Positions 19,322 to 33,170 of a stretch of DNA of 64,000 bases are shown here, one piece after another. Source of the DNA: an uncultured bacterium. Its GTDB lineage: Bacteria; Fermentibacterota; Fermentibacteria; Fermentibacterales; JCC-6. How positions within the stretch are numbered: the first letter of the stretch is position 1; every line of letters begins with the position of its first letter. The notes beneath the pieces were generated by a model. That model saw nothing but the letters and a program-made list of their open reading frames with translations, was not told the DNA's origin and made no database searches. Where the stretch lies: positions 16,535 through 80,534 of the forward strand of contig CAZRXU010000001.1 of assembly GCA_964604135.1 (NCBI GenBank). Direction: 5' to 3'. The position numbers and the translations under genes were made by a program.

Positions 19322-19397
19322 GCGGGCATAACTCAGTTGGCAGAGTGTCAGCCTCCCATGCTGAATGTCGCGGGTTCGAAACCCGTTGCCCGCTCCA
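19322..19397 (+). tRNA. tRNA-Gly (anticodon CCC)
   Basis: Manual cloverleaf. Acceptor GCGGGCA/TGCCCGC. D-arm ACTC-AGTTGGCAG-AGTG. Anticodon stem TCAGC/GCTGA with loop CTCCCAT giving anticodon CCC. T-arm GCGGG-TTCGAAA-CCCGT. Discriminator T plus encoded CCA. Confidence 0.85.
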
Positions 19398-19413
19398 GAT
19401 TATCTGTGGAATC

Positions 19414-20007
19414 ATGATGTTTCTCCTTGTGCTGCTTCTTGCAGATCCCCTGTCATCAAACGAAAGCTTGTGGCTTCTGCGTGCAGGGTGTGCAGCGGGC
19501 GGCAATCCTCCAGATATGGCTTCATACCTGTATACAAGTGTTAATACTATTTCGGATATTTCACTTGCAGTTGCAACAGATGGAATCAAAGGGGGAGATG
19601 CTTCAATGCTCGTTCCGCTTGTGGCTTCTCTTGTTTCCCGCGGGGAGACAGAGCTGGCGGAAACCTGCTGGAGTCTTCGGGGAATGGAATTGCCTGCAAC
19701 CAGAAACGATCTGCTCGATGTTCTTGCGTGGTTCGGCAGGTATGAACTGTACCATGAAATGGCGTCGAATCCCTTAATTCCATCCGACATGGAAGGGAAA
19801 ATGCACAGTGATCAGTGTGGGGCTGTCTGTGCTCTGGGATGGATGAGAACCAGAAGCGACGGGATGTTTCACGGTGATGATGCTGTTTCTCCTCTTGATA
19901 TAAAGGTGCTTTCTGCGTATTTCCCATCTATCGATGCATCTGCGGAGTACATAACCACCGCTGAACTTGAGAGTGTTTTTCAGTCTTTGGGCGGAGGTTC
20001 CCGGTGA
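19414..20007 (+). CDS. Hypothetical protein (hydrophobic N-terminus, probably exported)
   Basis: The ORF track starts at 19345 and overlaps the tRNA; the internal ATG at 19414 (MMFLLVLLL...) is a more plausible start. No recognisable domain. Confidence 0.4.
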   Translation: MMFLLVLLLADPLSSNESLWLLRAGCAAGGNPPDMASYLYTSVNTISDISLAVATDGIKGGDASMLVPLVASLVSRGETELAETCWSLRGMELPATRNDLLDVLAWFGRYELYHEMASNPLIPSDMEGKMHSDQCGAVCALGWMRTRSDGMFHGDDAVSPLDIKVLSAYFPSIDASAEYITTAELESVFQSLGGGSR

Positions 20008-20633
20008 AAATCAGCGAAGCTCAGCAGAGACACCTTGAACAGTTTTCTCAAACGATAGAGATGATAAAAAGAACACAGGGGCAGCTTCCTTTCGCTCCTG
20101 CCATGGTCTCATGGGTTCGTATTATTATTCTTCCATTCAGTATCTGGGCTGGCTGGTATGCTCACTTCACCGTTATGTTCTGGTTGTGTCTTGTGGCGGC
20201 TTCAAGCGATTACATTGATGGCTGGCTGGCGAGAAAACTTAAGAAATCCAGTACTCCGGGTAAAACACTTGATATTCTGGCAGATAAACTGTTTCTCTCT
20301 GTAATGCTGATTTTTCTTGCCCGACTCGGTGTGGCAAACACCCTGCTGGCCCTTATCCCCGCGTGGTATCACATAGCTGTGGTTCTTGGTCTGCTGGTTG
20401 TTTCCTGGAGCATAAAAATACCGGTTGTAGCTATTACCACAAGTGAAAGGCTTACAATTATTCTTAGTTACGTAATGGTTCTTACAGCCGCTGGTGTGCT
20501 TGCTTATCCGGCGAAGAGCATATTTGTGAAATTGTTGTGGGTTGCACAGATACTTACGCCGATTGCTGCTATACTTGGCGTTGTGAGTTACTTCAGGTTC
20601 AGCAGAAGACTGATACAGAGGTACCTGCAATGA
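20004..20633 (+). CDS. CDP-alcohol phosphatidyltransferase family membrane protein
   Basis: Signature D-G-x2-A-R-x8-G-x3-D-x3-D present as SDYIDGWLARKLKKSSTPGKTLDILADKL. Multiple TM helices. 4 nt overlap with the upstream gene. Confidence 0.85.
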   Translation: MKISEAQQRHLEQFSQTIEMIKRTQGQLPFAPAMVSWVRIIILPFSIWAGWYAHFTVMFWLCLVAASSDYIDGWLARKLKKSSTPGKTLDILADKLFLSVMLIFLARLGVANTLLALIPAWYHIAVVLGLLVVSWSIKIPVVAITTSERLTIILSYVMVLTAAGVLAYPAKSIFVKLLWVAQILTPIAAILGVVSYFRFSRRLIQRYLQ

Positions 20634-21298
20634 TCGCTGTTCTGCTTTTTATTGTGTGCTTCTCTCCGCTTGAACTGGAGCTGGCTGGAAAACTGCCGGA
20701 AGCAGGTGCTGCCTGGCAGGAAGACGGCAGCCTGTCAGGGCAGGTCAGGGTGATGGGAAGGCTTGTGGAGGAAGCAATATACGCAGGTGACGCCAGACGG
20801 GCATTTTTGCTGGCCGGTGAGCTGGGAAGCATCTGCAACGACGCAGATATTCAGCAGTTCTGGATGGCAAGGATTGCATGGGCTTCAGGTCTTCCTGTGT
20901 TGGCTGCGGAAGAGCTGAAGCAGATGAACCCGTCGGATCCGTGGCTTCTTCACAGAGCTCTCGGATTGTCCGCATTGTTTACAGAAAACGGTGAGGTAGC
21001 CATACGAGAGCTCACAATGTCTGTTGCCGCGGCTTCCACGGCAAGAAAGGCCTTCTGGAGCGGTATAGATCTGTGTTCCGCTTATTTGAATGCTGGAAGG
21101 TATTCTGATGCCCTGCAGCTGTCCCGTCTGATAAAAGTTCGTTACCCTGGAGATGCCATGGGCGATGTGATGTACGGGCTGTGCCTACAGGTTTCAGGGC
21201 AGTTCGGAGAGTCTTCAAGAGTATTAAATTCTATAGATATGGATAATCCGGCAGCAGTTTCTCTTGCCCGGAGTATTATGGAAGGATTTGAGCAGTGA
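20630..21298 (+). CDS. Hypothetical protein, helical/TPR-like
   Basis: ATGA overlap with the CDP-alcohol phosphatidyltransferase stop. N-terminal hydrophobic segment, alpha-helical repeat character. Track ORF 20537 start rejected because it overlaps the upstream gene. Confidence 0.45.
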   Translation: MIAVLLFIVCFSPLELELAGKLPEAGAAWQEDGSLSGQVRVMGRLVEEAIYAGDARRAFLLAGELGSICNDADIQQFWMARIAWASGLPVLAAEELKQMNPSDPWLLHRALGLSALFTENGEVAIRELTMSVAAASTARKAFWSGIDLCSAYLNAGRYSDALQLSRLIKVRYPGDAMGDVMYGLCLQVSGQFGESSRVLNSIDMDNPAAVSLARSIMEGFEQ

Positions 21299-22188
21299 AA
21301 TTTATAAGAGATCTCTTTGGTAAACGAAGAGTAACCAGGGTTTCTTCCAACTGGAGCGATTTCAATTTCCCGTCTGATGTTACGGAACCAGAAGCCGTTG
21401 GAGTGTTTTCTTCTTCAGATATTTCCTCTGCGTGGTCGGCTGTTTACATGGCCAGTGTACTTCAGAATGTGTATCCCTCTATTCCGGTTCACTTTGTGAC
21501 TCACAGCAGTGTGGCCGAGCTCGCCGGATTCCTGCCGGTAACACCGCAGATGCACATATATACCGGTGACCCTGGATCAGTTGATCCCGAGATTCCAGAG
21601 GGTGTTCTTATGTTTTCTCCTCAGCCTGAAGACAGTTTGCTGCGTTTTGTGGAAAAAGCATCTCCTCTTGCGTGTGTTTCAACACAAAAAAACCCGGCTG
21701 TGAATATAATTGTTAAAATAGGATCTGATACTGTGTTACCGCATAGCATCTACGAACTGATGAAGGTTCTCAAAATGGAAGCAGATACAGCGTGGAAACC
21801 GGTAGTGCCGGGTGTTCTGGCCGAGAAGGCTTCCTCTGTTCTGTCCCCTGTGTCTCACCGCACACTGCCGTACATTCTGGCCACTGAAGCTGCAGCAAAT
21901 GTACTGGAGAAAAAACGGGCAGAAGTTCCACTTAAGATTGTTCTTGTAGACGGAAAGACTACTGTTATTCCACCGGAGACAAGTGTCGGTCTGCTGGCGG
22001 CAATGGTTGCCGGTGCTTCCGCTATGGTCACAACGGATCGGAATCTGTGGATACATGCAAGAGCTCTGGGAATACCGGTGATAGGGCTGGACAGAAAGGG
22101 AGTATTCAGCGGATGGGGAGGCGAGCCTGCACCAGGAGACACAATGTTTCTGGAGCAGTGGGCAACCCTTATCAGAGTTGGCTGGTAA
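21295..22188 (+). CDS. Hypothetical protein, divergent GT9 (heptosyltransferase)-like C-terminal region
   Basis: C-terminal VGLLAAMVAGASAMVTTDRNLWIHARALGIPVIGL resembles the GT9 donor-binding region (GNDSGPMHLAAALGxPxVALFG). The N-terminal half is not recognisable. 4 nt overlap with the upstream gene. Confidence 0.4.
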   Translation: MKFIRDLFGKRRVTRVSSNWSDFNFPSDVTEPEAVGVFSSSDISSAWSAVYMASVLQNVYPSIPVHFVTHSSVAELAGFLPVTPQMHIYTGDPGSVDPEIPEGVLMFSPQPEDSLLRFVEKASPLACVSTQKNPAVNIIVKIGSDTVLPHSIYELMKVLKMEADTAWKPVVPGVLAEKASSVLSPVSHRTLPYILATEAAANVLEKKRAEVPLKIVLVDGKTTVIPPETSVGLLAAMVAGASAMVTTDRNLWIHARALGIPVIGLDRKGVFSGWGGEPAPGDTMFLEQWATLIRVGW

Positions 22189-22193
22189 CTTCG

Positions 22194-22595
22194 ATGAAAA
22201 AGGTAATTACATACGGAACATTCGACCTGTTTCACATAGGTCATCTTAACATGTTGAAACGGGCAAAAGCTCTGGGTGACTACCTTGTGGTGGCTGTTTC
22301 CACAGATGAATTCAACACCGGAAAACACAAACAGTGTGTTTATCCATACTCTCACAGAGCGCAGATAGTTGAAGCTATTCGTTGCGTGGACGAGGTGATA
22401 CCGGAGAACAGCTGGGAGCAGAAAATTGATGATGTCAGGAAACACTCCATAGGTATTTTTGTTATAGGGGAAGACTGGGCAGGAAAATTTGATTTTCTTA
22501 AGGAATACTGCGAAGTAGTTTACCTGCCCAGAACGAAGAGCATTTCAACAACATCCATCAGGAACACGGTAAAGAACGGTAAAACGATTATCTGA
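22194..22595 (+). CDS. tagD: Glycerol-3-phosphate cytidylyltransferase (TagD/TarD family)
   Basis: MKKVITYGTFDLFHIGHLNMLKRAKALGDYLVVAVSTDEF is the HxGH cytidylyltransferase motif of the TagD family. ~133 aa. Internal start chosen 6 nt after the upstream stop. Confidence 0.88.
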   Translation: MKKVITYGTFDLFHIGHLNMLKRAKALGDYLVVAVSTDEFNTGKHKQCVYPYSHRAQIVEAIRCVDEVIPENSWEQKIDDVRKHSIGIFVIGEDWAGKFDFLKEYCEVVYLPRTKSISTTSIRNTVKNGKTII

Positions 22596-23635
22596 TGAAA
22601 CTGCTGTTCTACATTTCAAAACTCTACTCTGTTCCAGTTGTGCAGCCTCTGGTGAACGAGGCAAAGAGCAGAGAGGTGGAAGTCGCATTTTTCGTCAGTT
22701 CAAAGGTAAAGAAAGACCTTCCCCATGAAATATCGGATCTTCCGGTATTTACAAACTTGAACAGTACCAAAGCTTTCAAGCCCAACTTTGTTTTGTGCCC
22801 GGGCAATTTCGTGGATTTCCGCTTGTCGGGAATAAAAGTTGAGCTTTTTCACGGCATTGGAGTAGAGAAGCCTTCACACTACAAAATCAGGCACTTTTTC
22901 GATATGTACCTTACCTCAGGGCCGGTTGTGACCGAAAGGTTTGCACAGATGCAGAACAGGTACAGATACTTCAGAACTGTGGAAACCGGGTGGCCGAAGA
23001 TAGATCATATTCTTAAATACAACACCACAGACCTTAAAAAGAAGTACGATATACCTGCAGGCAAAAAGGTTATTCTTTATGCTCCCACGCACAGCAGAAC
23101 CATGGAGTCTGCGACTCTGCTTCTTCCTGAGATTGAAAAAACCATGGAGCCGGATGAGATATGGCTGTGCAAGCCACACGAATTCATGAGCAGATCTCTT
23201 GTAAACGGAATTGCAGACAAACAGCAGTTTCGCCTGATCACCGATTACGATATTACCCCATATCTTCATCTGGCAGATATGATGGTTTCTGACACTTCTT
23301 CTGTGGTCTACGAATTCATGGTTCTGGACAAGCCGGTTGTAACCTTCAGAACACTGGCAAGAAAAGACAAAGGTATCAACATACAGGAGCCCCGGGAGCT
23401 GAGGGCTGCACTGGACCGATCCTTTCTGAATCCTGATGAGTTCTCGAGCAACCGGAAGCGTCATCTTGATGAGGTAAATCCCAGATTAGACGGAAACATA
23501 TCAAAGAACATCATTGATCTTCTTTCCACAGTAGACCCTGAGGAACCAGTGGGAACGAGGCGGAAACCGCTGAATCTGTACCGGAAACTTCAGATTATCT
23601 ATCACAGCCATTTCCGTAAGGGATATATGCGTTAA
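22595..23635 (+). CDS. CDP-glycerol glycerophosphotransferase (TagF/TagB family), paralog 1
   Basis: ILYAPTHS ... DMMVSDTSSVVYEFMVLDKPVV motifs typical of the TagF family. 1 nt overlap with the tagD stop. Confidence 0.85.
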   Translation: MKLLFYISKLYSVPVVQPLVNEAKSREVEVAFFVSSKVKKDLPHEISDLPVFTNLNSTKAFKPNFVLCPGNFVDFRLSGIKVELFHGIGVEKPSHYKIRHFFDMYLTSGPVVTERFAQMQNRYRYFRTVETGWPKIDHILKYNTTDLKKKYDIPAGKKVILYAPTHSRTMESATLLLPEIEKTMEPDEIWLCKPHEFMSRSLVNGIADKQQFRLITDYDITPYLHLADMMVSDTSSVVYEFMVLDKPVVTFRTLARKDKGINIQEPRELRAALDRSFLNPDEFSSNRKRHLDEVNPRLDGNISKNIIDLLSTVDPEEPVGTRRKPLNLYRKLQIIYHSHFRKGYMR

Positions 23636-23749
23636 ATATTTGTAATATGAGCTGGAACAAACGAACGCTGTCGATGCTATTACCTCAGGTGTTACCTATA
23701 CGCCATATCAAGAGTAACAGTGGATTCAAACCGCCTGGCTGGAGGAAAA

Positions 23750-24061
23750 ATGAAGAGAGCGTCAACAGCGATAGTAGCAGTACTGGTACAAGTGTTTCTG
23801 ATCCTGACCGCCTGTGGTAATGACACAACAGGGATAACGCCTCCGCATAACCCTATGGATGAAGGCCAGGAAGCTATCGATAACTACGTGCACGCCTACA
23901 ACACCTTGGATGCTGACCTTCTTACAGTAACTCTGGACAGTGGATTCCTGCACCATCTGCTGGAGGAGAACTGGGCTGACTACAACGGAGACGGAGAAAT
24001 TGACAACACCTGGGGCTACAGCCTGGAACTCTCATTTGCAGAGGGGTACTTCTCCGCATAA
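23750..24061 (+). CDS. Small lipoprotein, hypothetical
   Basis: Signal peptide with lipobox LILTAC (MKRASTAIVAVLVQVFLILTACGND). Acidic mature part. Start chosen at the internal ATG. Confidence 0.5.
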   Translation: MKRASTAIVAVLVQVFLILTACGNDTTGITPPHNPMDEGQEAIDNYVHAYNTLDADLLTVTLDSGFLHHLLEENWADYNGDGEIDNTWGYSLELSFAEGYFSA

Positions 24062-24483
24062 TACGATTGCTGCGAATTTTCTTTAGCAGGAGAGGAGCAG
24101 TATATCTGGCCCGATGACCAATCCGGGGAATCAATTGCATATCCCAGAAGCTATGTGCTGAAATTCTACAACACCGGCCAATCAGGGGTTACAGAAACAG
24201 GAAGCTTTATTCTTGTCTGCAAACCTGACAGCTCCGGAATCTGGCACCTCACACACCTGATCGATCAGGATTCCCTGTAGAGCAGAGGGGCGTGTTCATT
24301 AGAACAATTATGTCCCTCCCCGGCTTTCCCGGGGGACCGAAATAGTTCGATAACTCCGGGATTGATGTGAATACTCCCTTTCAAGAACCGCTCGTTGCGG
24401 GCTGAAAGGGAGTGACCGTGCAAGTTACAAAGTGTTTAAACATTCGGTTACTTTGGTAAATGAATGCCGCCTTCAGGCGGCTC

Positions 24484-24507
24484 AAAAAATTGCCGCTTTG
24501 AGCGGTT
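24484..24507 (-). terminator. Candidate Rho-independent terminator for the minus-strand astacin/radical-SAM operon
   Basis: On the minus strand a 5 bp stem (CCGCT-caa-AGCGG) is followed by T6, then a second GC hairpin (GCCGCC-tgaa-GGCGGC). It lies ~100 nt downstream of the last minus-strand ORF. Confidence 0.3.
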
Positions 24508-24608: not shown

Positions 24609-24953
24609 TTATTGAATCAATTGCAATTCCACGACTATTTCCGTATAGGGGGAATCAGTCTTAACAGGAAAGGCCTGTACTGTAATAAAATCTCCTGATT
24701 GAATTCGCTCTGATCCGGAGATTGAGAGGTGAGCCCAAACATTGAGATGCCGACCTGCAGGATAATTACTGGGTACTTCAAGCAAATCTGTTACTACAGT
24801 GATTCCTGTTTTATCAGCAACGGAAAGCAAATGAGAGCAAACGGTAATTGAGGGTGCATCAAGCAGAGATACATCCCGAATTTCCACTCGACACATAGCT
24901 GTTGCTGGTAGCATAACCTGATTGCGCAGCAAAACTTTAACTTCGACTTTCAT
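24609..24953 (-). CDS. Hypothetical protein (114 aa), last gene of the astacin/rSAM minus-strand cluster
   Basis: ORF with AAAGG upstream of the ATG. No recognised motif; one CxxH-like stretch. Function unknown. Confidence 0.4.
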   Translation of the reverse strand: MKVEVKVLLRNQVMLPATAMCRVEIRDVSLLDAPSITVCSHLLSVADKTGITVVTDLLEVPSNYPAGRHLNVWAHLSISGSERIQSGDFITVQAFPVKTDSPYTEIVVELQLIQ

Positions 24954-25136
24954 ATTATCAGCCTTTCAGTTGAGCAAAGATATCTTCTTTTACCAGAAGC
25001 CTTGCAAAAAATACAACACAGGCATTTGACATCACACGAGCGGCTGCAAAACACGCTGATTCTAGTCAACAGCGCTGCTATTCCTCTCCGATCGACATGC
25101 TTTCCATCTCGTCCGTGAGGTGCTGCTGCTCAATGT

Positions 25137-26477
25137 CTATTCACTGTCAAGCTCCAAATGTACATTTTCGTTCTCAGTTACCAGCCAGCAGTGTCGATTC
25201 GAATGGAACAGTGTTTTTTTGGCAAAATTTGCTGCCTTGCATCCACCACGGCAGACAGGTAACCACTCGCATTGCCTGCAGTATCCACTAATATCACTGA
25301 TTTGCAGACTGCGAAAGTAATTGAGGAATCTGGAGTATTTCCAGATATAACTAAATTTCTGGTTTTTTACACTGTCTGCAGTTACGCCTTCGAAGTAGTG
25401 GCAGGGAAGCACCTCACCAATTGGGGTAACCGTACAATAGTTAAGTGCACCCCCGCATTCACTCGGTTGTGTTTGGTCAATTCTGTAGTGGGGTGGCTCA
25501 GAGAATGTATGCTCAAATTCAAGGGCTGCAATCTCAAAGGGCCAATTGCCCCTCTGCTGCAGCAGGTATGTGTATACTTCTTTTACTCTTTCAGGGGGAA
25601 GCTCCAGTGTGCTGTTACTCTTACCGCGTCCGTTGGGAATAAACGGAATCAGTCTGAATCTCTTTGCTCCAAGCCGTTGAACCAGTTTCAGCATATTCGG
25701 AATATCATCAACATTATGCATCGAGATTAGAGTTCCTATAGTAATCTCATGTCCTGTTCTGACCAGTATTTCAATACCCCTAATCGCTTGATTAAAAGCT
25801 ATTTCGCTGCCTCTGACTCTTGAATAAATCTCAGAAGTGGATCCATCCAGACTAACCTGGATATTTGCCTGAAGTATTTTCAGCTCATCTGCAATTACTG
25901 GTGTGATGAGAGTACCGTTTGTAGCGAGGCTTATGGCCAGATTATTCCTCCTTGCTGCATAGGCAAGCTGGAAAAAATCTTTGCGAATAAGAGGCTCGCC
26001 TCCGCTGAAGGTGATTTCGCGCACTCGCATGTCTCTCCACTCGTTCAGTAGAGCAAGCCCCTCCTGAGTTGACAATTCATTCTCATGCTTTTTCTCAGCA
26101 GAAACAACGCAGTGAAGGCACCTCAAATTACACTCATTTGTTATTTCCCAGAAGATTGAGTCAGGAGGAGGGGCATCAAACCAGCGCATCTTTTCTTTTT
26201 TTATCCAGAGAAGCCCACTGCTTTCAAAATCATTAACGAAGCTTATTGTACGGGTTCTTATCTCATCCTCAGATGACATAAAGAGATTACATAGTTTAGC
26301 TATGATCTCTTCAAGAGACCTGCTGCCGTTGCTCAATTTAAGCAGACATGCTGCAGCCGCATTTATTTCAATATTTTCTTCACTGTAGGGCGATAGGATT
26401 CTAACTTGTTCATCTCTCCCGTGAATCATCTTGAATGGAAAGAAGGGGTAGCACATTAAACACCTCCGATAGGGCAC
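25137..26477 (-). CDS. Radical SAM/SPASM-domain peptide-modifying enzyme with N-terminal PqqD-like RiPP recognition element
   Basis: CNLRCLHC CxxxCxxC radical SAM cluster motif at aa 116-123. GGEP-like FSGGEPL. C-terminal Cys-rich SPASM region (CGGALNYC...PCHY...GYCRQCEWLPVCRGGCKA). Residues ~30-90 (INAAAACLLKLSNGSRSLEEIIAKL...VNDFESSGLLW) match the PqqD/RRE pattern. GTG start. Confidence 0.85.
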   Translation of the reverse strand: MPYRRCLMCYPFFPFKMIHGRDEQVRILSPYSEENIEINAAAACLLKLSNGSRSLEEIIAKLCNLFMSSEDEIRTRTISFVNDFESSGLLWIKKEKMRWFDAPPPDSIFWEITNECNLRCLHCVVSAEKKHENELSTQEGLALLNEWRDMRVREITFSGGEPLIRKDFFQLAYAARRNNLAISLATNGTLITPVIADELKILQANIQVSLDGSTSEIYSRVRGSEIAFNQAIRGIEILVRTGHEITIGTLISMHNVDDIPNMLKLVQRLGAKRFRLIPFIPNGRGKSNSTLELPPERVKEVYTYLLQQRGNWPFEIAALEFEHTFSEPPHYRIDQTQPSECGGALNYCTVTPIGEVLPCHYFEGVTADSVKNQKFSYIWKYSRFLNYFRSLQISDISGYCRQCEWLPVCRGGCKAANFAKKTLFHSNRHCWLVTENENVHLELDSE

Positions 26478-26530
26478 TAAAACCTATATTTACGTGTCTG
26501 GATTGATGATGCGAGTATTGTCGGGGAAAC

Positions 26531-26570
26531 GGAGATTGTATCCCAGCAGAATTACAGGGATACAATCTCT
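26531..26570 (-). promoter_or_regulatory. Strong 13-14 bp inverted repeat (hairpin) in the astacin-rSAM intergenic spacer
   Basis: GGAGATTGTATCCC-agcagaattaca-GGGATACAATCTCT. No T-run follows on either strand. Likely an mRNA processing/stability element or intra-operon attenuator. Confidence 0.4.
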
Positions 26571-26657
26571 GAATCACTACAAGAGAGGAAGCTTGTTCAG
26601 GATGCTTCAACAGGCAGATTGCTCAGCTGCATGACTGAAGATCAGAAAACAGTCTTC

Positions 26658-28124
26658 TTATCTTGGATTGAAACCTCCATATCTACGGGTTCCCTCGCAT
26701 CCGCAATCCTCATTTGGATCGGCAAACTCGGTTGCTCTCCAGTTTGGATTGTAACCGTATCCCATGGGTGCAGGAGGAGCATATCCGTAGTCCATCGGAG
26801 CAGGAGGGGCATACCCGTAGCCCATGGGTGCAGGAGGGGCATACCCGTAGCCCATGGGTGCAGGAGGAGCATATCCGTAGCCCATGGGTGCAGGAGGGGC
26901 ATACCCGTAGCCCATGGGAGCAGGAGGGGCATATCCGTAGTCCATCGGTGCAGGAGGGGCATATCTGTAGCCATAACCGGGCATTCTGGAGCCAGCAAAC
27001 CTGTGACCTCTACTGAAGTAATTAGGTCGTACCTCAGGATAAACCCGGTGTCTCCATATCTCAGGTTTCATGTACGGTCCAGCCATACATCCAACTGTTG
27101 GTGCTGCCGCACAGAAAATTGGTGCAGGGGGACATCTGAGCAATGGAGCAGGGGGACATCTGTGTATCGGTGCAGGGTAACATATGGGTATCGGTGCAGG
27201 GGGACACCTGTGTATCGGTGCTGGGTAACATATGGGTATCGGTGCAGGGGGACACCTGTGTATCGGTGCAGCCATACACTGCATCACCGGTCCACCGGGA
27301 CAAACAAGTTGTGGGGGACAGAAAGTGGCAATTGCGGCGATATCACCTGCACTCAATCCGGTTCTTTGACCAATAACAGCTGTGGAGTCTGTAGGTGTAA
27401 TTGTGTCAGTGCCATCAATAGAGAAGGCCGCACGCCCGTAGTGCATAACCGAGCCGTAGTCATATGCTCCGATATCATCACCATCGGTGATATGCTGGTT
27501 GAAATTGTGTTCTCGTCCGGGAATAATCTTTGCCCAGTTGATTGTGACGAACGCATTTCGATCCTCGCGGCTGTGCTCGTGCCACAAACCAAAAGCATGA
27601 CCTATTTCGTGTATTGTGTTTCCTGTTGAGCACCCACCGGCAAGTGTGATAAACTGCTCACCCCCTTGGCGGCCTACCCAGGAGCTGCAGCCGTTGCCGG
27701 GTCTGAAGGTAACAAAATCGGGGTACTGTGCTGCATTTGCAGCAGTTCTAAGAATAAAGTTAACCTGGGTATTTGCTACCCAATGGGAAATAGCATCAGT
27801 TACTCGAGTTTGATTTGGAAGAGCGTTGTCAATTGTGTAGGGAATGAGACAGTTTGGCCATCTGTAATTGTCACCGGTGATTGCAACACCATTAGCAATT
27901 TCACCACGCATCTCCTGGCGGCGGATTTCTGTTTTTCGCTCAACCTCCTCGGCAGTGCCGAGAACAATATCTCCTTCGAAGATCGCAAGTCCGTCAACTA
28001 CGGTGTATTGAACTTCCTTTGAGTAGAAAGTAGCACCGTCAATGAATGCTGTGAGCACCACATCGGAGCTGTATTGCTCCCCATAGTCTTTAACTGTGTT
28101 TTTTCCTCTTTTCTTCTCAACCAT
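26658..28124 (-). CDS. Astacin-family (M12A) zinc metalloprotease with no signal peptide, fused to a 220 aa Cys/Pro-rich and Tyr-Gly-rich tandem-repeat tail
   Basis: Extended astacin zinc-binding motif HEIGHAFGLWHEHSREDRN (HExxHxxGxxHExxRxDRD) at aa 172-190. Mature-N-terminus-like RWPNCLIPYTID. Met-turn SVMHY. Tail: three CPPAPIPICYPAPIHR repeats, then seven GYGYAPPAPM repeats. Strong GGAGG RBS. Confidence 0.88.
   Translation of the reverse strand: MVEKKRGKNTVKDYGEQYSSDVVLTAFIDGATFYSKEVQYTVVDGLAIFEGDIVLGTAEEVERKTEIRRQEMRGEIANGVAITGDNYRWPNCLIPYTIDNALPNQTRVTDAISHWVANTQVNFILRTAANAAQYPDFVTFRPGNGCSSWVGRQGGEQFITLAGGCSTGNTIHEIGHAFGLWHEHSREDRNAFVTINWAKIIPGREHNFNQHITDGDDIGAYDYGSVMHYGRAAFSIDGTDTITPTDSTAVIGQRTGLSAGDIAAIATFCPPQLVCPGGPVMQCMAAPIHRCPPAPIPICYPAPIHRCPPAPIPICYPAPIHRCPPAPLLRCPPAPIFCAAAPTVGCMAGPYMKPEIWRHRVYPEVRPNYFSRGHRFAGSRMPGYGYRYAPPAPMDYGYAPPAPMGYGYAPPAPMGYGYAPPAPMGYGYAPPAPMGYGYAPPAPMDYGYAPPAPMGYGYNPNWRATEFADPNEDCGCEGTRRYGGFNPR
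26757..26967. repeat. Tandem 30 nt DNA repeat (~7 copies) encoding the GYGYAPPAPM repeats of the astacin tail
   Basis: Unit CCCATGGGTGCAGGAGGGGCATACCCGTAG repeated head-to-tail with a few substitutions. In frame within the minus-strand CDS. Confidence 0.9.
27120..27290. repeat. Tandem ~48 nt DNA repeat (~3 copies) encoding the CPPAPIPICYPAPIHR repeats of the astacin tail
   Basis: Unit GGTGCAGGGGGACACCTGTGTATCGGTGC(A/T)GGGTAACATATGGGTATC repeated. Confidence 0.85.
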
Positions 28125-28641: not shown

Positions 28642-29691
28642 TCAGATGTGCCCGGACTCAAGGAGTTTTTCGAAGCCCGTGAAAACCATTTCCGGTGTAA
28701 TGCCAAAGGTGTTGTCTTCGTATTTTTCAAGACTGCTTGCAAGATAGATGTGTTGGGGCATATGCCAGGCAACCCATTTCAAGGGGTTGGTTCCAGGGCC
28801 GAATACGGTTACGGTAGGTGTTCCCACTGCAACTGCCAGGTGGTGAACACCTCCGTTGTTTCCAATGTAGACCCTGGCGTGTTTAAGCATGGCAGCTGCT
28901 TCATTGAAAGTTGTGGGAGGAGTTATCAACGGCCTGCTTTTCATCATAGAGGCCATGTGTTCAACCTTTTTCTTTTCTCCTGGTCCCCAGAGCAGAACAA
29001 CGGTAAACCCTTGCTTTTCAATAAGCATATCTGCGACAGCTGCGAAACTGCCGAAGTTCCACTGCCTGCTTCTGATTGGAGTTACAGGAGAGAACACGGC
29101 AATGCCTTTGTCAGATATACTCTTTTTATTAAGCCAGTTCTGTATTCTGTTTTCAGACTCTGGAAGCACGTGAATGTATGTGTTGTGCGGGATCTCCTGT
29201 ATTCCAAGGGGGTGCAGCAACCCGAACTTTGCTCTGGCAGAATAGATGTTGTGGTCTTTTAACTCACGGTAGTTGTAAACCCAGTTGTGTCCCTTGAACC
29301 AGCTCCATTTCTTTGTTTTGTGCCAGCCGATACGAATTCCAGCACCACTGAACAAGGTGATCTCGGCAGCACCCGGGCCGCGAGCCTGGTCTATTACAAC
29401 ATCGTAGTGCTGTCTGCGGATATTTGAGATAAGATGGAATCTGTCAATTGTGTAAGCCAGTGTTCCAGTCTTGAGCTTGTTCATCACAACAATGTTGTCA
29501 ACACAGGCATTGTTCTCAAGTATGGTTGCGTAGGGTTTTTGAACCAGATAATCAATAACAGCATCAGGGAAAGCCGCTCTCAGCGCAGGAAGGTAGCCTG
29601 TGTTAAGAAGAACATCTCCGAACGGTTTGTACTGAATAATCAGTATCTTGCTTATCTTCAGCAATCTGCAATGAGGAATGAGTTTGTTCAC
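28642..29691 (-). CDS. Glycosyltransferase family 9 (ADP-heptose:LPS heptosyltransferase-like)
   Basis: N-terminal ILIIQYKPFGDVLLNTGYLPAL and C-terminal GNNGGVHHLAVAVGTPTVTVFGPGTNPLKW are classic GT9 motifs. Confidence 0.85.
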   Translation of the reverse strand: MNKLIPHCRLLKISKILIIQYKPFGDVLLNTGYLPALRAAFPDAVIDYLVQKPYATILENNACVDNIVVMNKLKTGTLAYTIDRFHLISNIRRQHYDVVIDQARGPGAAEITLFSGAGIRIGWHKTKKWSWFKGHNWVYNYRELKDHNIYSARAKFGLLHPLGIQEIPHNTYIHVLPESENRIQNWLNKKSISDKGIAVFSPVTPIRSRQWNFGSFAAVADMLIEKQGFTVVLLWGPGEKKKVEHMASMMKSRPLITPPTTFNEAAAMLKHARVYIGNNGGVHHLAVAVGTPTVTVFGPGTNPLKWVAWHMPQHIYLASSLEKYEDNTFGITPEMVFTGFEKLLESGHI

Positions 29692-30083
29692 TTGAGATTC
29701 AGTCCGTAATTTGTGTACTGCTTTTCTTCCACAACACGGGACTTGTACCGGGTGTTTATCTGCTTTTTCAGTGCAGCCCGTCTGTCGTTGTCGAAGTAAA
29801 CATTTCTTGCAAGTGCAATGAATTTTGCATCAAACCGCTTCTCTGCTTCAAGTCTCCGTATGTTGTCTTCTGTTTCCCATATACGCAGGTTTATTTTCTT
29901 TAATTCCAGAAAAACATCCGAGCGATTTGACAGATTGAGTTCTTTCATGTTCTCCAGCAGAAGGCTGTATTCCACCTGCACGTTGGCCAGCTTTTCTGAA
30001 TCCACTATTTTTTCAAGTTTTATTTCAAGAATAGTAATTTTGTCTACCAGTTCTCCCACGGAAACCTCTATTTTCATCTGCAT
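29688..30083 (-). CDS. Hypothetical coiled-coil protein
   Basis: 131 aa. Heptad-like charged repeats. 4 nt overlap with the downstream GT9 gene. No motif recognised. Confidence 0.45.
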   Translation of the reverse strand: MQMKIEVSVGELVDKITILEIKLEKIVDSEKLANVQVEYSLLLENMKELNLSNRSDVFLELKKINLRIWETEDNIRRLEAEKRFDAKFIALARNVYFDNDRRAALKKQINTRYKSRVVEEKQYTNYGLNLK

Positions 30084-30256
30084 TTCTCCAGTGCGTACAT
30101 GTTAATAAAGTATATCCCTGCAGGCAAATATAACACGGAGCAACAGGTGCTGCGTTTCTTGCAAAAACACGGGCATGTAGTTATAATTCATGCTGGATCC
30201 CATGTCACTGTATTTTGTAACATTCTTTAACGCAATAAGATATACTGGAGCATCTG

Positions 30257-31015
30257 ATGAAGGCAGTCATTATAGCGGCAGGATCAGGCTCTCGTCTTGA
30301 GTCTCGGCACAATGGCATTCCAAAGACACTTCTGAAAATTGGGAAAGACAGAATAGTAGATATTATTCTTAGTTCCATACAACAGTCTGGAATTACGGAT
30401 GTGGTTGTGGTTACAGGCTATAAGGCGCAGATTCTGGAAGACCATCTTACCTCTTCAGCACCGGAATCTCTTAGTATTCAATTCTGCCGCAACCCGTTGT
30501 GGAATCTTTCAAACGGTGTTTCAGTTCTAGCTGCAGAACAGGCAGTAGAGCCTGGTGAAGAGTTTGTTCTTCTTATGAGCGATCACATATTTCAGCCTGA
30601 AATGCTGAAAATAACAGCTGATACACCTCTGGAACACAACAAGGCAGTTCTTGCCGTCGATTTTAAGCTAAACGAAATTCCGGATATCGATGACGGGATG
30701 AAGGTAAAATGTGAAATAGCTGATTCCGGCAGATACCGAATAACCAGTCTGGACAAAAAGTTCACCGACTACCAGGCAGTAGATTGCGGTATGTTTAAAC
30801 TCAACTATGGTTTTTTCGATGTACTGAAACAGTCTATTCACGATGGAAAAGATTCCCTCTCGGATGCCTGCAATGTGTATGCCCTGTTGGGTAACATGAT
30901 CGGTATCGATATAGGGGATCTGCGGTGGATTGACCTGGATACACCAGAGATGTTCGGCTTTAATGATCTAATAGACAGAATTACTGCCCATATGAGAGGC
31001 GACAGTATCCGGTGA
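30257..31015 (+). CDS. LicC/IspD-like nucleotidyltransferase (probable CDP-alcohol donor synthesis)
   Basis: MKAVIIAAGSGSRLESRHNGIPKTLLKIGKDRIVDIILSSIQQSGITDVVVVTGYKAQ resembles LicC-type CTP:phospho-alcohol cytidylyltransferases. Located immediately upstream of three TagF-like genes. Confidence 0.7.
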   Translation: MKAVIIAAGSGSRLESRHNGIPKTLLKIGKDRIVDIILSSIQQSGITDVVVVTGYKAQILEDHLTSSAPESLSIQFCRNPLWNLSNGVSVLAAEQAVEPGEEFVLLMSDHIFQPEMLKITADTPLEHNKAVLAVDFKLNEIPDIDDGMKVKCEIADSGRYRITSLDKKFTDYQAVDCGMFKLNYGFFDVLKQSIHDGKDSLSDACNVYALLGNMIGIDIGDLRWIDLDTPEMFGFNDLIDRITAHMRGDSIR

Positions 31016-32073
31016 ACACTTACTATTTCGCAAATCAAATCTACCAGTTGTCTTATGCGTGGCCGATATTCAACCGTATAGGCGGGGAGTTCATTGTAAG
31101 AAAGTACAAAACACTTCTTAAGTTCAAAAGATTCCTCAGAGGCAGCGTTAAGAGCGGCAGCGGTGCATTCCTTGGAACACCTGTAGTGAAGCGAAGGAAG
31201 CTTCGTTATGTTTCCGACTTAACAGGTGTTGTTCTTTCCCAATCCAATGCATGGGTGCGTAATGACACAGACAAGTCGAGAAGCATTTTCATTGGTCACG
31301 GCACAGGAGACAAGAAGTACGGGGGAAAGGCACACACACTTCTGAACTATCAGTATGTTTTTGTTTCCGGCCCCAAACACATGGAAAAGTTCAAAGACAG
31401 CGATCTGATATTTCCGGAAAGCAGTCTGGTGAAAATAGGGAATCTCAGGTTTGATGACTACGTAAATGGTAAACTGGACAAAAATGCAATCATGAACAGA
31501 ATGGGTGTTCCAGAAACAGACAGGGCAAGAAAAACTGTTCTGTATGCTCCTACATGGGAATGGGGCAACGGAACGCTCGAGAAGTATGCAAAACCATTCA
31601 TGAAGCAGATAACCCAAGAACACAACCTCATTATCAGACCACATCACTTCGATTCCCACAGGGTGCCAAAGTTGAAACTATGGGCAAAACTCAACGGAAT
31701 AAAAAGGGTTTACTTTTCCAATTCCAACAGAATTGCTGTTAGCGATACAATGCATGATTTTGCGGTGTCAGATATTCTTATCAGTGATACCTCTTCTGTG
31801 TTGTACGAGTATCTTATCACAGGGAAGCCAATAGTTATTGCAAACACAGATTTTTCAGGTCTGCACAACATGCCGGACACCATGAATGTAATGAAAATTG
31901 CAGACTTTTTTCGCGGTTCAGAGAAGATTCTGGATGTTGTAAACAGAAACCTGGCGTCAGACACTTCAAAGTATCTGGAAATGCTTCACAACTGCTTCTA
32001 TTTCAACGACGGAAAGTCGGTTGACAGGGCGGTGGAGTTTATAAACGGCGTAGCAGGTGAACTGAAACAATGA
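31012..32073 (+). CDS. CDP-glycerol glycerophosphotransferase (TagF family), paralog 2
   Basis: VLYAPTWEWGNG ... ISDTSSVLYEYLITGKPIVIAN. 4 nt overlap with the upstream gene. Confidence 0.85.
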   Translation: MNTYYFANQIYQLSYAWPIFNRIGGEFIVRKYKTLLKFKRFLRGSVKSGSGAFLGTPVVKRRKLRYVSDLTGVVLSQSNAWVRNDTDKSRSIFIGHGTGDKKYGGKAHTLLNYQYVFVSGPKHMEKFKDSDLIFPESSLVKIGNLRFDDYVNGKLDKNAIMNRMGVPETDRARKTVLYAPTWEWGNGTLEKYAKPFMKQITQEHNLIIRPHHFDSHRVPKLKLWAKLNGIKRVYFSNSNRIAVSDTMHDFAVSDILISDTSSVLYEYLITGKPIVIANTDFSGLHNMPDTMNVMKIADFFRGSEKILDVVNRNLASDTSKYLEMLHNCFYFNDGKSVDRAVEFINGVAGELKQ

Positions 32074-33170
32074 AGAGGATTCTTTTTGATCTGAAGAAGC
32101 AGTATTACTTCAATTCACTTTACCCCCTTTACAGAGTTATGAAGCAGGATCCCCGGTACGATCTGTGGATCAGAGCGGGGAAAGACCAGCACCGGTTTCT
32201 AGGCATGTTTATGATTTCAAACAGGTCAAGAATTCAGGATGAACTTCGTTCCAGAGGGTTTCAGGTAACAGATAGAACCTCTGGGTTTGACGGGGTCGTC
32301 TGCGGAGATGCATTAAAGAAACCTGAAAAATACGGCGATGTTCCGAAGTTTCACCTCGACCACGGAGTGGGAATAAAAACACTTCGTATCAGAAACATTG
32401 TCAGACAGAAAAACGCAAGGTATCATGTTTTCCTTGAGGGGCAGTACTGGTACGATTACATAAGGAGTCTGGGGTACGAAAACAAAGCCGATTTTTATGT
32501 TACAGGTCTGCCGAAGCTCGATCCGTTTTTTCAGTCGGGTTACTACGACAATCAAGCGCTGATAACAAGGTTGGGGCTGGATCCAGGCAAAAAAACTGTA
32601 CTATTCGCACCATCGTACAAACCAAGCTGTATTGATCACATAGGAGGCAGCATTATAAAGCTGTTGCCGGAGTACAATCTGTTGGTTAAGCTTCATCCCT
32701 ATTCATGGGGAGGGAAGTATGCACCACATTCTCAGCATAGACTATATCAGGAACTGGCCGGGAAGCACAGAGAGGTGTTTCTTGTCCCATCTGAGGAATA
32801 CGATGTATATCCCTACCTGTTTCTTGCAGATACACTTATAAGTGACACTTCCAGTGTCGTAAACGAATTTCTTGCGCTGGGAAAACACGGTATTATCTAC
32901 CAGCTGCCTCAGGGTAACCCCAGGCATTCAGACGGTATGCCGGTTCTTTCAATAGCCCCTGAAGATTGGCTCAAGGATGCCTTCCCGCATGTATCCCGTC
33001 CTGATCAGCTTGAAGATGCAGTAGAGGCCGCTGTTTTTCCCACACATGCCATGAAGCAGAAACTTGAAGAATACAGGAGGTACTTCTTTACAGGGCTAGA
33101 TGGAAAGGCTTCCGAAAGGGTAAAACACTGTATAGATTCTGTTCTGCTGGAGAAGAGTCAGCATGCCTGA
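32070..33170 (+). CDS. CDP-glycerol glycerophosphotransferase (TagF family), paralog 3
   Basis: VLFAPSYKPS ... LISDTSSVVNEFLALGKHGIIY. 4 nt overlap with the upstream gene. Confidence 0.82.
   Translation: MKRILFDLKKQYYFNSLYPLYRVMKQDPRYDLWIRAGKDQHRFLGMFMISNRSRIQDELRSRGFQVTDRTSGFDGVVCGDALKKPEKYGDVPKFHLDHGVGIKTLRIRNIVRQKNARYHVFLEGQYWYDYIRSLGYENKADFYVTGLPKLDPFFQSGYYDNQALITRLGLDPGKKTVLFAPSYKPSCIDHIGGSIIKLLPEYNLLVKLHPYSWGGKYAPHSQHRLYQELAGKHREVFLVPSEEYDVYPYLFLADTLISDTSSVVNEFLALGKHGIIYQLPQGNPRHSDGMPVLSIAPEDWLKDAFPHVSRPDQLEDAVEAAVFPTHAMKQKLEEYRRYFFTGLDGKASERVKHCIDSVLLEKSQHA

Follow-up and report, generated by a model that had tools for sequence, protein, structure and literature searches.

Which protein does a radical S-adenosylmethionine (SAM) enzyme modify when it has the architecture of a peptide maturase and the gene directly upstream encodes a protease with a long repeat tail rather than a small precursor peptide? 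The question is raised by a 64,000-nucleotide stretch of contig CAZRXU010000001.1 (positions 16,535 to 80,534) from an uncultured Fermentibacterota bacterium, here called the window. Three open reading frames (ORFs) on its minus strand encode an astacin metalloprotease with a 220-residue repeat tail (gene 1), an enzyme that combines a recognition element (RRE) for peptides that are made on the ribosome and modified after translation (RiPPs) with radical SAM and SPASM domains (gene 2), and a small all-beta protein (gene 3). An earlier sequence-only reading had drawn the same three ORFs, as was confirmed here, and had proposed the repeat tail as the substrate of the gene 2 enzyme. Comparison of sequences and gene contexts makes it likely that one part of that tail, an array of Cys-Pro units, is indeed what the enzyme acts on. 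The explanation as a whole, a three-gene protein-maturation cassette in which the modified tail is retained as a stalk and gene 3 is the partner of the protease, is one for which we would put the chances as even.

The radical SAM enzyme and the Cys-Pro units upstream of it

The domains recognized in gene 2 by the sequence-only reading were borne out by profile searches. The PqqD-like RRE (residues 34-90) scores 28.5 bits against a Pfam gathering cut-off of 23.4, the SPASM domain 31.2 bits (cut-off 21.5) and the Radical_SAM domain 82.9 bits, also above its gathering score; PF05402 is already annotated on most of the homologues. The CX3CX2C motif CNLRCLHC lies at residues 116-123. All 34 aligned members share C116, C120 and C123, and likewise all cysteines of the complete seven-Cys SPASM motif CX9-15GX4C...CX2CX5CX3C...C (C341, C359, C400, C403, C409, C413 and C430). 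The true start of gene 2 is probably the ATG at position 26456, because a 94%-identical homologue is 439 residues long and conservation within the family starts at YPFFPF. The gap between genes 1 and 2 is 180 nt, or 201 nt with this start, and that between genes 2 and 3 is 183 nt.

The nearest solved relatives of the gene 2 enzyme are PqqE, SkfB and CteB (58-71 bits). Among the named NCBIfam equivalogs compared (AhbD, MftC, NirJ, PqqE, StsB, WgkB, PapB, ScmE/F, ACGX and SkfB) it reaches the cut-off of none: the best matches are AhbD (196 bits, cut-off 500) and MftC (177 bits, cut-off 265), with NirJ2 also near the top, and StsB (149 bits, cut-off 625), PqqE (132 bits, cut-off 381) and PapB (97 bits, cut-off 340) score lower. 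An identity as AhbD, NirJ, MftC or PqqE was rejected because the scores fall far below the curated cut-offs. Judged by its sequence, the enzyme has the architecture of a sactipeptide or ranthipeptide maturase and is a member of no curated family. An independent metagenome contig encodes a radical SAM protein that matches it at 100%, together with the same tail C-terminus; a protein 100% identical to that of gene 1 is present in public data (P0121), and an exact copy of the gene 3 protein is encoded on a 41-kb ENA metagenome contig. Look-ups of the exact window sequences returned no record for the gene 1 and gene 2 proteins.

The tail of gene 1 has two repetitive parts. In the first, 11 cysteines lie 6-8 residues apart between residues 269 and 346. 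Ten of these fit a unit C-x-x-[A/G]-P (residues 275-346, 7-8 residues apart), a better description than the three Cys/Pro repeats counted earlier, and the array closes with CMAGPYMKP. Tandem Repeats Finder (TRF) describes this part as 6.3 copies of a 24-nt period and 2.6 copies of a 48-nt period. C269 is unchanged in all astacin homologues and was assigned to the catalytic domain, because it is invariant even where the tail has no cysteine. The second part consists of seven Tyr-Gly repeats, the number given by the sequence-only reading, with [G/D]YGYAPPAPM as the better consensus (TRF: 7.3 copies of a 30-nt period). The protein then ends in a pattern, E[YF]..P ... F[DN]P with 1-4 further residues before the C-terminus, that is common to the astacins and to the subtilisin-type (S8) proteins described below. 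From about residue 290 on, the AlphaFold 2 (AF2) model shows no secondary structure and a confidence score (pLDDT) below 50; the tail is therefore predicted to be disordered and accessible.

The contexts of gene 2 homologues were gathered by protein identity, from one genome per GTDB species and from JGI metagenomes, and were compared by script. A homologue was counted as a family member if it matched over its full length including the RRE region, and the upstream count was restricted to family loci with readable upstream DNA. Homologues proved numerous and occur in both bacteria and archaea; a search with the 98-residue RRE region against a library of 1.84 billion proteins gave only 11 weak matches and is uninformative on the size of the family. 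Of about 60 distinct proteins encoded directly upstream on the same strand, all except a handful carry 4-29 Cys-Pro units. In about 90 control loci from the same scans, whose radical SAM/SPASM enzymes are 29-33% identical and have no RRE match, only 0-2 such motifs were counted. The pairing of enzyme and Cys-Pro units is thus near-invariant, extends from green sulfur bacteria to methanogens, and answers the question of whether the homologues occur consistently without repeat proteins: nearly all follow one.

The unit itself was defined from 581 examples in 52 distinct proteins as C1 P2 (68%) P3 (70%) [A53/S20/G12]4 P5 (93%) x [I/L/V] x; the most frequent distance from one Cys to the next is 8 residues. 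Arrays nearly always close with C[W/L/M/A][A/P]GP[Y/D/W], and this last unit is the best conserved. Variants occur among the more distant members: repeat-only proteins of Methanoregula have CPP[K/L]P units, one metagenome contig has CIPGxP units, and Desulfuromonas has CTGATPTV after Big_2 domains. In one Metallophos protein (L123) no more than a few C-x(2-4)-P motifs are present, and one unit or none was counted in two of the most distant members (L121 and L126).

The heads to which the units are attached differ. Astacin heads occur in the window, Chlorobium, Thermodesulfobacteriota and Nitrospinota; thermolysin-type M4 heads with an FTP propeptide in Methanolobus, Anaerolineae, Bacteroidales and others; and S8 heads in Methanosarcina, Brocadia and deltaproteobacterial metagenome-assembled genomes. 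Other upstream proteins have a calcineurin-like phosphoesterase (Metallophos) with CarboxypepD_reg domains, Big_2 domains, or no head. No signal peptide was found at the N-termini inspected. In a neighbor-joining tree of the radical SAM proteins the clades match the head class, so that enzyme and head have diverged together. An informative exception is one locus (L095 2492-4468) where an S8 head is joined to an astacin-type Cys-Pro and Tyr/Gly tail ending in ...TFDPTYKG and the radical SAM enzyme groups with the astacin clade, as if the head had been swapped while the module of tail plus maturase stayed constant.

Since the Cys-Pro units are the sole feature common to all partners of the enzyme, whose heads differ, they are its likeliest substrate. 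The earlier proposal for the repeat tail is upheld for this part by the family-wide pairing. It is not upheld for the Tyr-Gly repeats, which are confined to the astacin clade, vary within it, and are missing both in the M4 class and in the main S8 clade; they were rejected as a conserved target. A hidden small precursor was also sought. Six-frame peptides from the four non-coding stretches of the cassette gave chance matches only (E > 0.02, none syntenic), so that no conserved small ORF was found in the flanks or gaps; this agrees with the earlier statement that no separate precursor is encoded, and its alternative of a tiny unannotated one in the flanks was discarded. Rfam returned nothing in or around the cassette.

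The astacin head, its sister tails and gene 3

The head of gene 1 is an astacin. Pfam Astacin matches residues 88-267 (E 1.4e-45), residues 25-268 score 314.9 bits with the NCBIfam LegP equivalog (NF045530; cut-off 300), and the AF2 head model, built on an alignment of 42 homologues, matches BMP1/astacin structures in Foldseek (E 3e-15). The zinc motif HEIGHAFGLWHEH (residues 172-184) and the Met-turn SVMHY (residues 225-229) identified earlier are both present, and the full signature HExxHxxGxxHExxRxDRD plus SxMHY is found as HEIGHAFGLWHEHSREDRN plus SVMHY. The catalytic domain is modeled with confidence, as are residues 23-72 (strands and one helix) of the N-terminal pro-like domain, within which a FEGDI(V/I)LG motif is conserved.

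No signal peptide or hydrophobic stretch is present at the N-terminus of gene 1, where the Kyte-Doolittle maximum is 1.72 compared with 3.19 for a neighboring lipoprotein. This part of the sequence-only reading holds, and the conclusion drawn from it, a cytoplasmic protease, is doubtful. Four cysteines of the head are invariant among homologues, at what we take to be the positions of astacin's two disulfides. The match to these positions suggests that the astacin works outside the cytoplasm despite having no signal peptide.

Astacins of this type also occur with other tails. A search with the gene 1 protein found 3763 proteins at E <= 1e-10 among the candidates scored. Most of the best 120 clusters are about 430-450 residues long, with heads 64-70% identical to that of the window protein; 15 of the 120 have Cys-Pro tails and the others have Cys-free repeats that start from the same junction. 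Four Cys-free-tail loci were examined for downstream genes. All three astacins with Thr/Lys/Glu/Asp tails (repeats ET.KER.ET.KE, DTRKE.VKD and PRTINKF.DDG) have an MvdD-type ATP-grasp gene directly downstream, and these loci may represent an undescribed protease-fused architecture of graspetide type. The loci are L167 5001-7347, L168 4480-6686 and L169 3462-6271; a YscW-like gene lies downstream in L169 and adjacent on the other strand in L167 and L168. At the fourth locus (L170 2067-4444) the astacin tail has Pro-rich PRLPFPPIRPFV repeats and in addition a Gln/Trp/Glu repeat, and the next gene downstream encodes a 226-residue protein resembling 2-oxoglutarate (2OG)-Fe(II) oxygenases. Graspetide ligases modify Thr, Ser or Lys with Asp or Glu, and prolyl hydroxylases modify Pro. 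The residues enriched in each tail match the known targets of the neighboring enzyme class. This parallel argues, independently of the radical SAM loci and at the level of sequence, for the repeat tail as the probable target of the adjacent enzyme in this protein family.

Gene 3, for which the sequence-only reading offered no interpretation, accompanies the astacin. Its product scores 26.2 bits with Pfam YscW (cut-off 22.6) and has the beta-sandwich fold of the YscW/ExsB/AspS pilotins. These pilotins are lipoproteins with a secretin partner, and gene 3 has neither trait: it starts with MKVEVKVLL, without signal peptide or lipobox, and no secretin gene was found in the surveyed loci, where the constant partner is the astacin. 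A hidden Markov model of the gene 3 protein gave matches in astacin-type loci only, whether the modifying enzyme is a radical SAM or an ATP-grasp protein. Gene 3 thus tracks the astacin and not the radical SAM enzyme.

Other head classes have third genes of their own. S8-type loci encode downstream a protein of about 105 residues that is paralogous to the N-terminal pro-region of the S8 protein itself (E 2e-9), and in one M4-type locus the corresponding protein is a paralogue of the FTP propeptide (E 8e-12). These free-standing copies follow the radical SAM gene at L009 7331-7654, L014 1852-2178, L033 4797-5114 and L012 5174-5869, and are candidate trans-acting inhibitors or chaperones. Protease propeptides often serve as folding chaperones and inhibitors; given this and the paralogues in S8 and M4 loci, the third gene of each class would by analogy encode a head-specific chaperone or inhibitor that stands outside the modification chemistry. 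Gene 3 was compared with the astacin pro-region for the same kind of copying, and no similarity was found.

Proposed chemistry and fate of the tail

In the proposed mechanism, gene 1 would be made as a leaderless LegP-type astacin zymogen with a disordered tail of ten C-x-x-[A/G]-P units. The gene 2 enzyme would bind this tail, with the final unit (C[W/M/L][A/P]GP), the E[YF]...F[DN]P motif at the C-terminus, or both as the probable binding site, and would modify the unit cysteines one after another. The most likely products would be intramolecular Cys thioether cross-links with the small residue 4 or its neighbor as acceptor; thioethers are the commonest outcome of RRE-SPASM enzymes acting on Cys-rich substrates. 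The second option would be an anSME-like oxidation of the Cys beta-carbon. Once modified, the Pro-rich segment would stay in the protein and link the protease head to the C-terminal motif as a stalk or hinge that is cross-linked and resists proteolysis, and the pilotin-fold beta-sandwich of gene 3 would act as the astacin's own chaperone or inhibitor.

Several points weigh against this mechanism. Gene adjacency and co-evolution fall short of proving an enzyme-substrate relation, and RRE-bearing radical SAM enzymes normally yield released peptides, an outcome that a protease in cis would fit. The chemistry is not fixed by the sequence: an eighth cysteine of the SPASM region, C348, is present in the window enzyme and in only 26 of the 34 family members, and its equivalence to an anSME ligand is drawn from position only (a cysteine at this position presumably completes the first auxiliary cluster of anSME). 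The Thorarchaeota member has a single unit, CWPGPDP, the inhibitor or chaperone role of gene 3 stands on analogy only, and the oxygenase of the Pro-rich sister locus was seen at that one locus and scores 26.4 bits with PF13640, under the cut-off of 27.

The strongest alternative is that gene 1 is a self-processing multi-core RiPP precursor: the radical SAM enzyme would modify the units, and the fused protease, once activated, would cut between them and release many small modified peptides. In essence this is the model of the sequence-only reading. In its favor, RREs are characteristic of enzymes that mature RiPPs, the tandem units look like the cores of multi-core precursors, most family members have a fused protease, graspetide-type ATP-grasp enzymes are the partners of sister astacins, and a repeat-only protein of 260 residues in Methanoregula looks like a precursor. 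However, nearly identical astacin heads carry chemically unrelated tails, so the specificity of the protease does not track the tail. The units hold 3-4 prolines per 8 residues, and segments this rich in Pro are poor endopeptidase substrates. Modules are found beyond the units, where the M4 proteins either stop or run into a helix-hairpin-helix domain (Pfam HHH_5) and the astacin and S8 proteins carry E[YF]..F[DN]P. Some heads (Metallophos, Big_2) are not proteases, and no conserved transporter was found near the family loci. A 2023 review of RiPP leader proteases does not mention a protease fused to its precursor, and in that sense the arrangement is without precedent. We therefore consider release of small peptides unlikely.

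Retention of the tail is favored by the near-identical heads on unrelated tails, the modules beyond the units, the non-protease heads and the want of a conserved transporter, together with the unit order, which in Methanolobus species is kept position by position. On these sequence features, retention could be right or wrong with about equal probability.

A second alternative is maturation at a single site, which would be the final unit, C[W/L/M][A/P]GP[Y/D/W], or else DCGC...GGF[N/D]P at the C-terminus, with the other units serving as a linker; the product would be one cross-link or cofactor-like group, as MftC and PqqE make at a C-terminal site. No unit is better conserved than the last, and the Thorarchaeota homologue has it alone, so that the true site could be the last unit only. 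In addition, MftC and PqqE rank with the stronger matches in NCBIfam and the PDB, and the C-terminal F[DN]P motif is found in two head classes. Against this, each unit keeps its cysteine in about 50 proteins from different phyla, and P5 is conserved at 93%, which a mere linker would not need, and the linkers of the sister astacins are free of Cys. The C-terminal cysteines are also missing in several members of the astacin clade (for example L092-L094), and all NCBIfam equivalog scores are far under their cut-offs. Modification at a single site is accordingly judged improbable.

That genes 1 and 2 are unrelated neighbors, the enzyme acting on a cofactor or tetrapyrrole (as AhbD or NirJ do) or on an unlinked peptide and the tail being an unmodified, perhaps metal-binding linker, is very improbable: the top NCBIfam matches are AhbD, MftC and NirJ2 and the case for tail modification is one of sequence and gene comparison, but the AhbD and MftC scores are at superfamily level only, AhbD and NirJ to our knowledge have no RRE, and the pairing holds, with co-divergence, across bacteria and archaea in otherwise unrelated neighborhoods.

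Setting, known systems and wider meaning

The features of the cassette are collected in Table 1.

Table 1. Features of the cassette, with positions in the window.
Feature	Position (nt)	Strand	Basis
Gene 1, leaderless LegP-type astacin with 220-residue repeat tail, 488 residues	26658..28124	minus	ORF, Pfam, NCBIfam
Gene 1, N-terminal pro-like domain, residues 1-87	27864..28124	minus	AF2, LegP model, hydropathy, invariant columns
Gene 1, astacin catalytic domain, residues 88-267	27324..27863	minus	Pfam, motifs, Foldseek
Gene 1, zinc motif	27573-27611	minus	
Gene 1, Met-turn	27438-27452	minus	
Gene 1, Cys-Pro unit array, residues 269-352, proposed substrate of the radical SAM enzyme	27069..27320	minus	Repeat finding, unit logo, AF2
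Gene 1, seven [G/D]YGYAPPAPM repeats, residues 382-461, Tyr/Gly-rich low-complexity spacer	26742..26981	minus	TRF, tail comparison
Gene 1, C-terminal motif WRATEFADPNEDCGCEGTRRYGGFNPR	26661..26741	minus	Tail comparison
Gene 2, RRE-radical SAM-SPASM enzyme, 446 residues	25137..26477	minus	Pfam, NCBIfam, alignment
Gene 2, RRE	26208-26378	minus	Pfam
Gene 2, radical SAM core	25683-26147	minus	
Gene 2, CNLRCLHC	26109-26132	minus	
Gene 2, SPASM	25188-25457	minus	Pfam
Gene 3, YscW/ExsB/AspS-fold all-beta protein, astacin-specific partner, 114 residues	24609..24953	minus	
Terminator-like hairpins about 100 nt past the gene 3 stop, probable operon end	24466..24505	minus	

An envelope-polymer gene cluster (window 20004-23635 and 28642-33170) surrounds the cassette and encodes a CDP-alcohol phosphatidyltransferase, a cytidylyltransferase, CDP-glycerol glycerophosphotransferases, a GT9 heptosyltransferase and a DUF6165 protein; the arrangement on its Glyphos_transf side is the same in a 94%-related contig (L001). 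The lipoprotein gene beside the cassette (window 23720-24280, plus strand) looks broken: ORF 23720-24061 ends in ...EGYFSA and ORF 24155-24280 continues it. In L001 (2338-2757) the gene is uninterrupted; the window copy is either a pseudogene or the product of a sequence error. A tRNA-Gly (CCC) at 19322-19397 on the plus strand was the sole RNA gene found in the window; the start of the listed ORF 19345-20007 is probably spurious, because it overlaps this tRNA.

Elsewhere, the complete genome of a cultured green sulfur bacterium, Chlorobium phaeobacteroides DSM 266, encodes the astacin (ABL64126.1, annotated as LegP), then the radical SAM enzyme, then a YscW-like gene. This cassette (L164 610-4468; CP000492.1, 55768-67186) adjoins divergent CHAT-protease and DUF900 genes, and another (L002) is set among transposases and a KAP NTPase; both neighborhoods are typical of mobile or conflict-related islands. 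In the Desulfuromonas variant (L031 2-4758, L032 1-3810) a Big_2 protein precedes the radical SAM enzyme and a 736-residue protein with eCIS-core (DUF4157-type) and LysM domains follows it. PADLOC gave only generic viperin-like matches to the radical SAM core of the window cassette, which is therefore no known defense system.

The closest known arrangements are CteB with SCIFF and PapB with PapA (freyrasin), in which an enzyme of RRE, radical SAM and SPASM domains is also encoded beside a Cys-rich substrate. CteB (5wgg) aligns with residues 61-418 of gene 2, and the iterative action proposed for gene 2 on repeated Cys motifs is that of CteB and PapB, PapA having six CX3D motifs. The sequence match to sactipeptide and ranthipeptide maturases is, however, at superfamily level only, and their substrates are peptides of about 50 residues whereas the candidate substrate here is the tail of a hydrolase of 400-750 residues. 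No small Cys-core precursor peptide was found, and the one Cys-rich partner that is conserved is a large protein's tail. The C-P-P-A-P unit has no Asp, Asn or Thr acceptor.

A precedent for a retained product is QhpD, a radical SAM/SPASM enzyme that makes several Cys thioethers in QhpC, which stays functional. QhpC differs from gene 1 in being a small stand-alone subunit with Cys-Asp/Glu links and the cysteine tryptophylquinone (CTQ) cofactor; no qhp genes are present here, and the QhpD model is not among the 25 best NCBIfam families for gene 2, none of which passes its cut-off. The enzyme anSME likewise is a radical SAM/SPASM protein acting on a Cys in an enzyme's own sequence. The Cys-Pro unit agrees with the sulfatase motif, C-x-P-[S/A]-R, in C1, P3 and [A/S]4, three positions out of four, but position 5 is Pro (93%) rather than Arg, so the C/S-x-P-x-R pattern is not present, and the units are repeated 4-29 times outside the catalytic domain. 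In addition, anSME has no RRE and matches gene 2 with only 28 bits.

Enzyme domains fused to tandem core repeats are also known: plant BURP-domain cyclases and the borosin OphMA have an N-terminal enzyme domain followed by such repeats, and plesiocin is a multi-core graspetide. In BURP proteins and OphMA the fused domain is the modifying enzyme; in gene 1 it is a protease, and the modifier is encoded by a separate gene. LegP, an astacin-like effector of Legionella, shares with gene 1 the same N-terminal region and astacin domain, but its model covers 244 positions and has no repeat tail or radical SAM partner, and nothing points to Dot/Icm translocation here. Annotation pipelines have carried the name LegP to Chlorobium and actinobacterial proteins.

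No description of the cassette was found in the searchable literature under radical SAM with protease, Cys-Pro repeats, astacin with ATP-grasp, or precursor-fused protease, although coverage is limited and absence is no proof; nor is it described in PMC7159879, PMC8939145 or PMC10885120. A 2022 survey of graspetide loci (PMC8939145) did report zincin peptidases beside ATP-grasp genes without an identifiable precursor. These may be a sister architecture of the astacin-ATP-grasp loci.

A wider reading can be offered tentatively, as one that may well prove wrong. It would see in these loci a cross-domain group of leaderless hydrolases built of head, stalk and tail, in which the stalk is a swappable cassette for post-translational modification: Cys-Pro units with an RRE-radical SAM-SPASM enzyme, Thr/Lys/Glu/Asp repeats with a graspetide-type ATP-grasp enzyme, or Pro-rich repeats with a 2OG oxygenase. 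Each head would have its own inhibitor-like partner, a logic that by analogy resembles the effector-immunity pairs of polymorphic toxins. On the C-P-P-A-P unit the radical SAM chemistry would be undescribed; it might, for instance, close very small rings through Cys-to-Ala/Pro C-alpha thioethers or yield poly-formylglycine. The outcome could be a protein stalk cross-linked by the enzyme, or a peptide factory that releases its own products.

Because Chlorobium phaeobacteroides DSM 266 is a cultured and fully sequenced host, the idea is directly testable. If it is true, tandem C-P-P-A-P units in the tails of full-size proteases would be a new substrate class for RRE-dependent radical SAM enzymes, and a new cross-link chemistry would be probable. 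The loci indicate a general design in which one protease chassis carries varied repeat tails matched to a radical SAM enzyme, an ATP-grasp enzyme or a 2OG oxygenase, and this design may account for the precursor-less ATP-grasp loci with zincin peptidases (PMC8939145). The homologues also show that LegP is a widespread family of environmental proteins and not a Legionella speciality.

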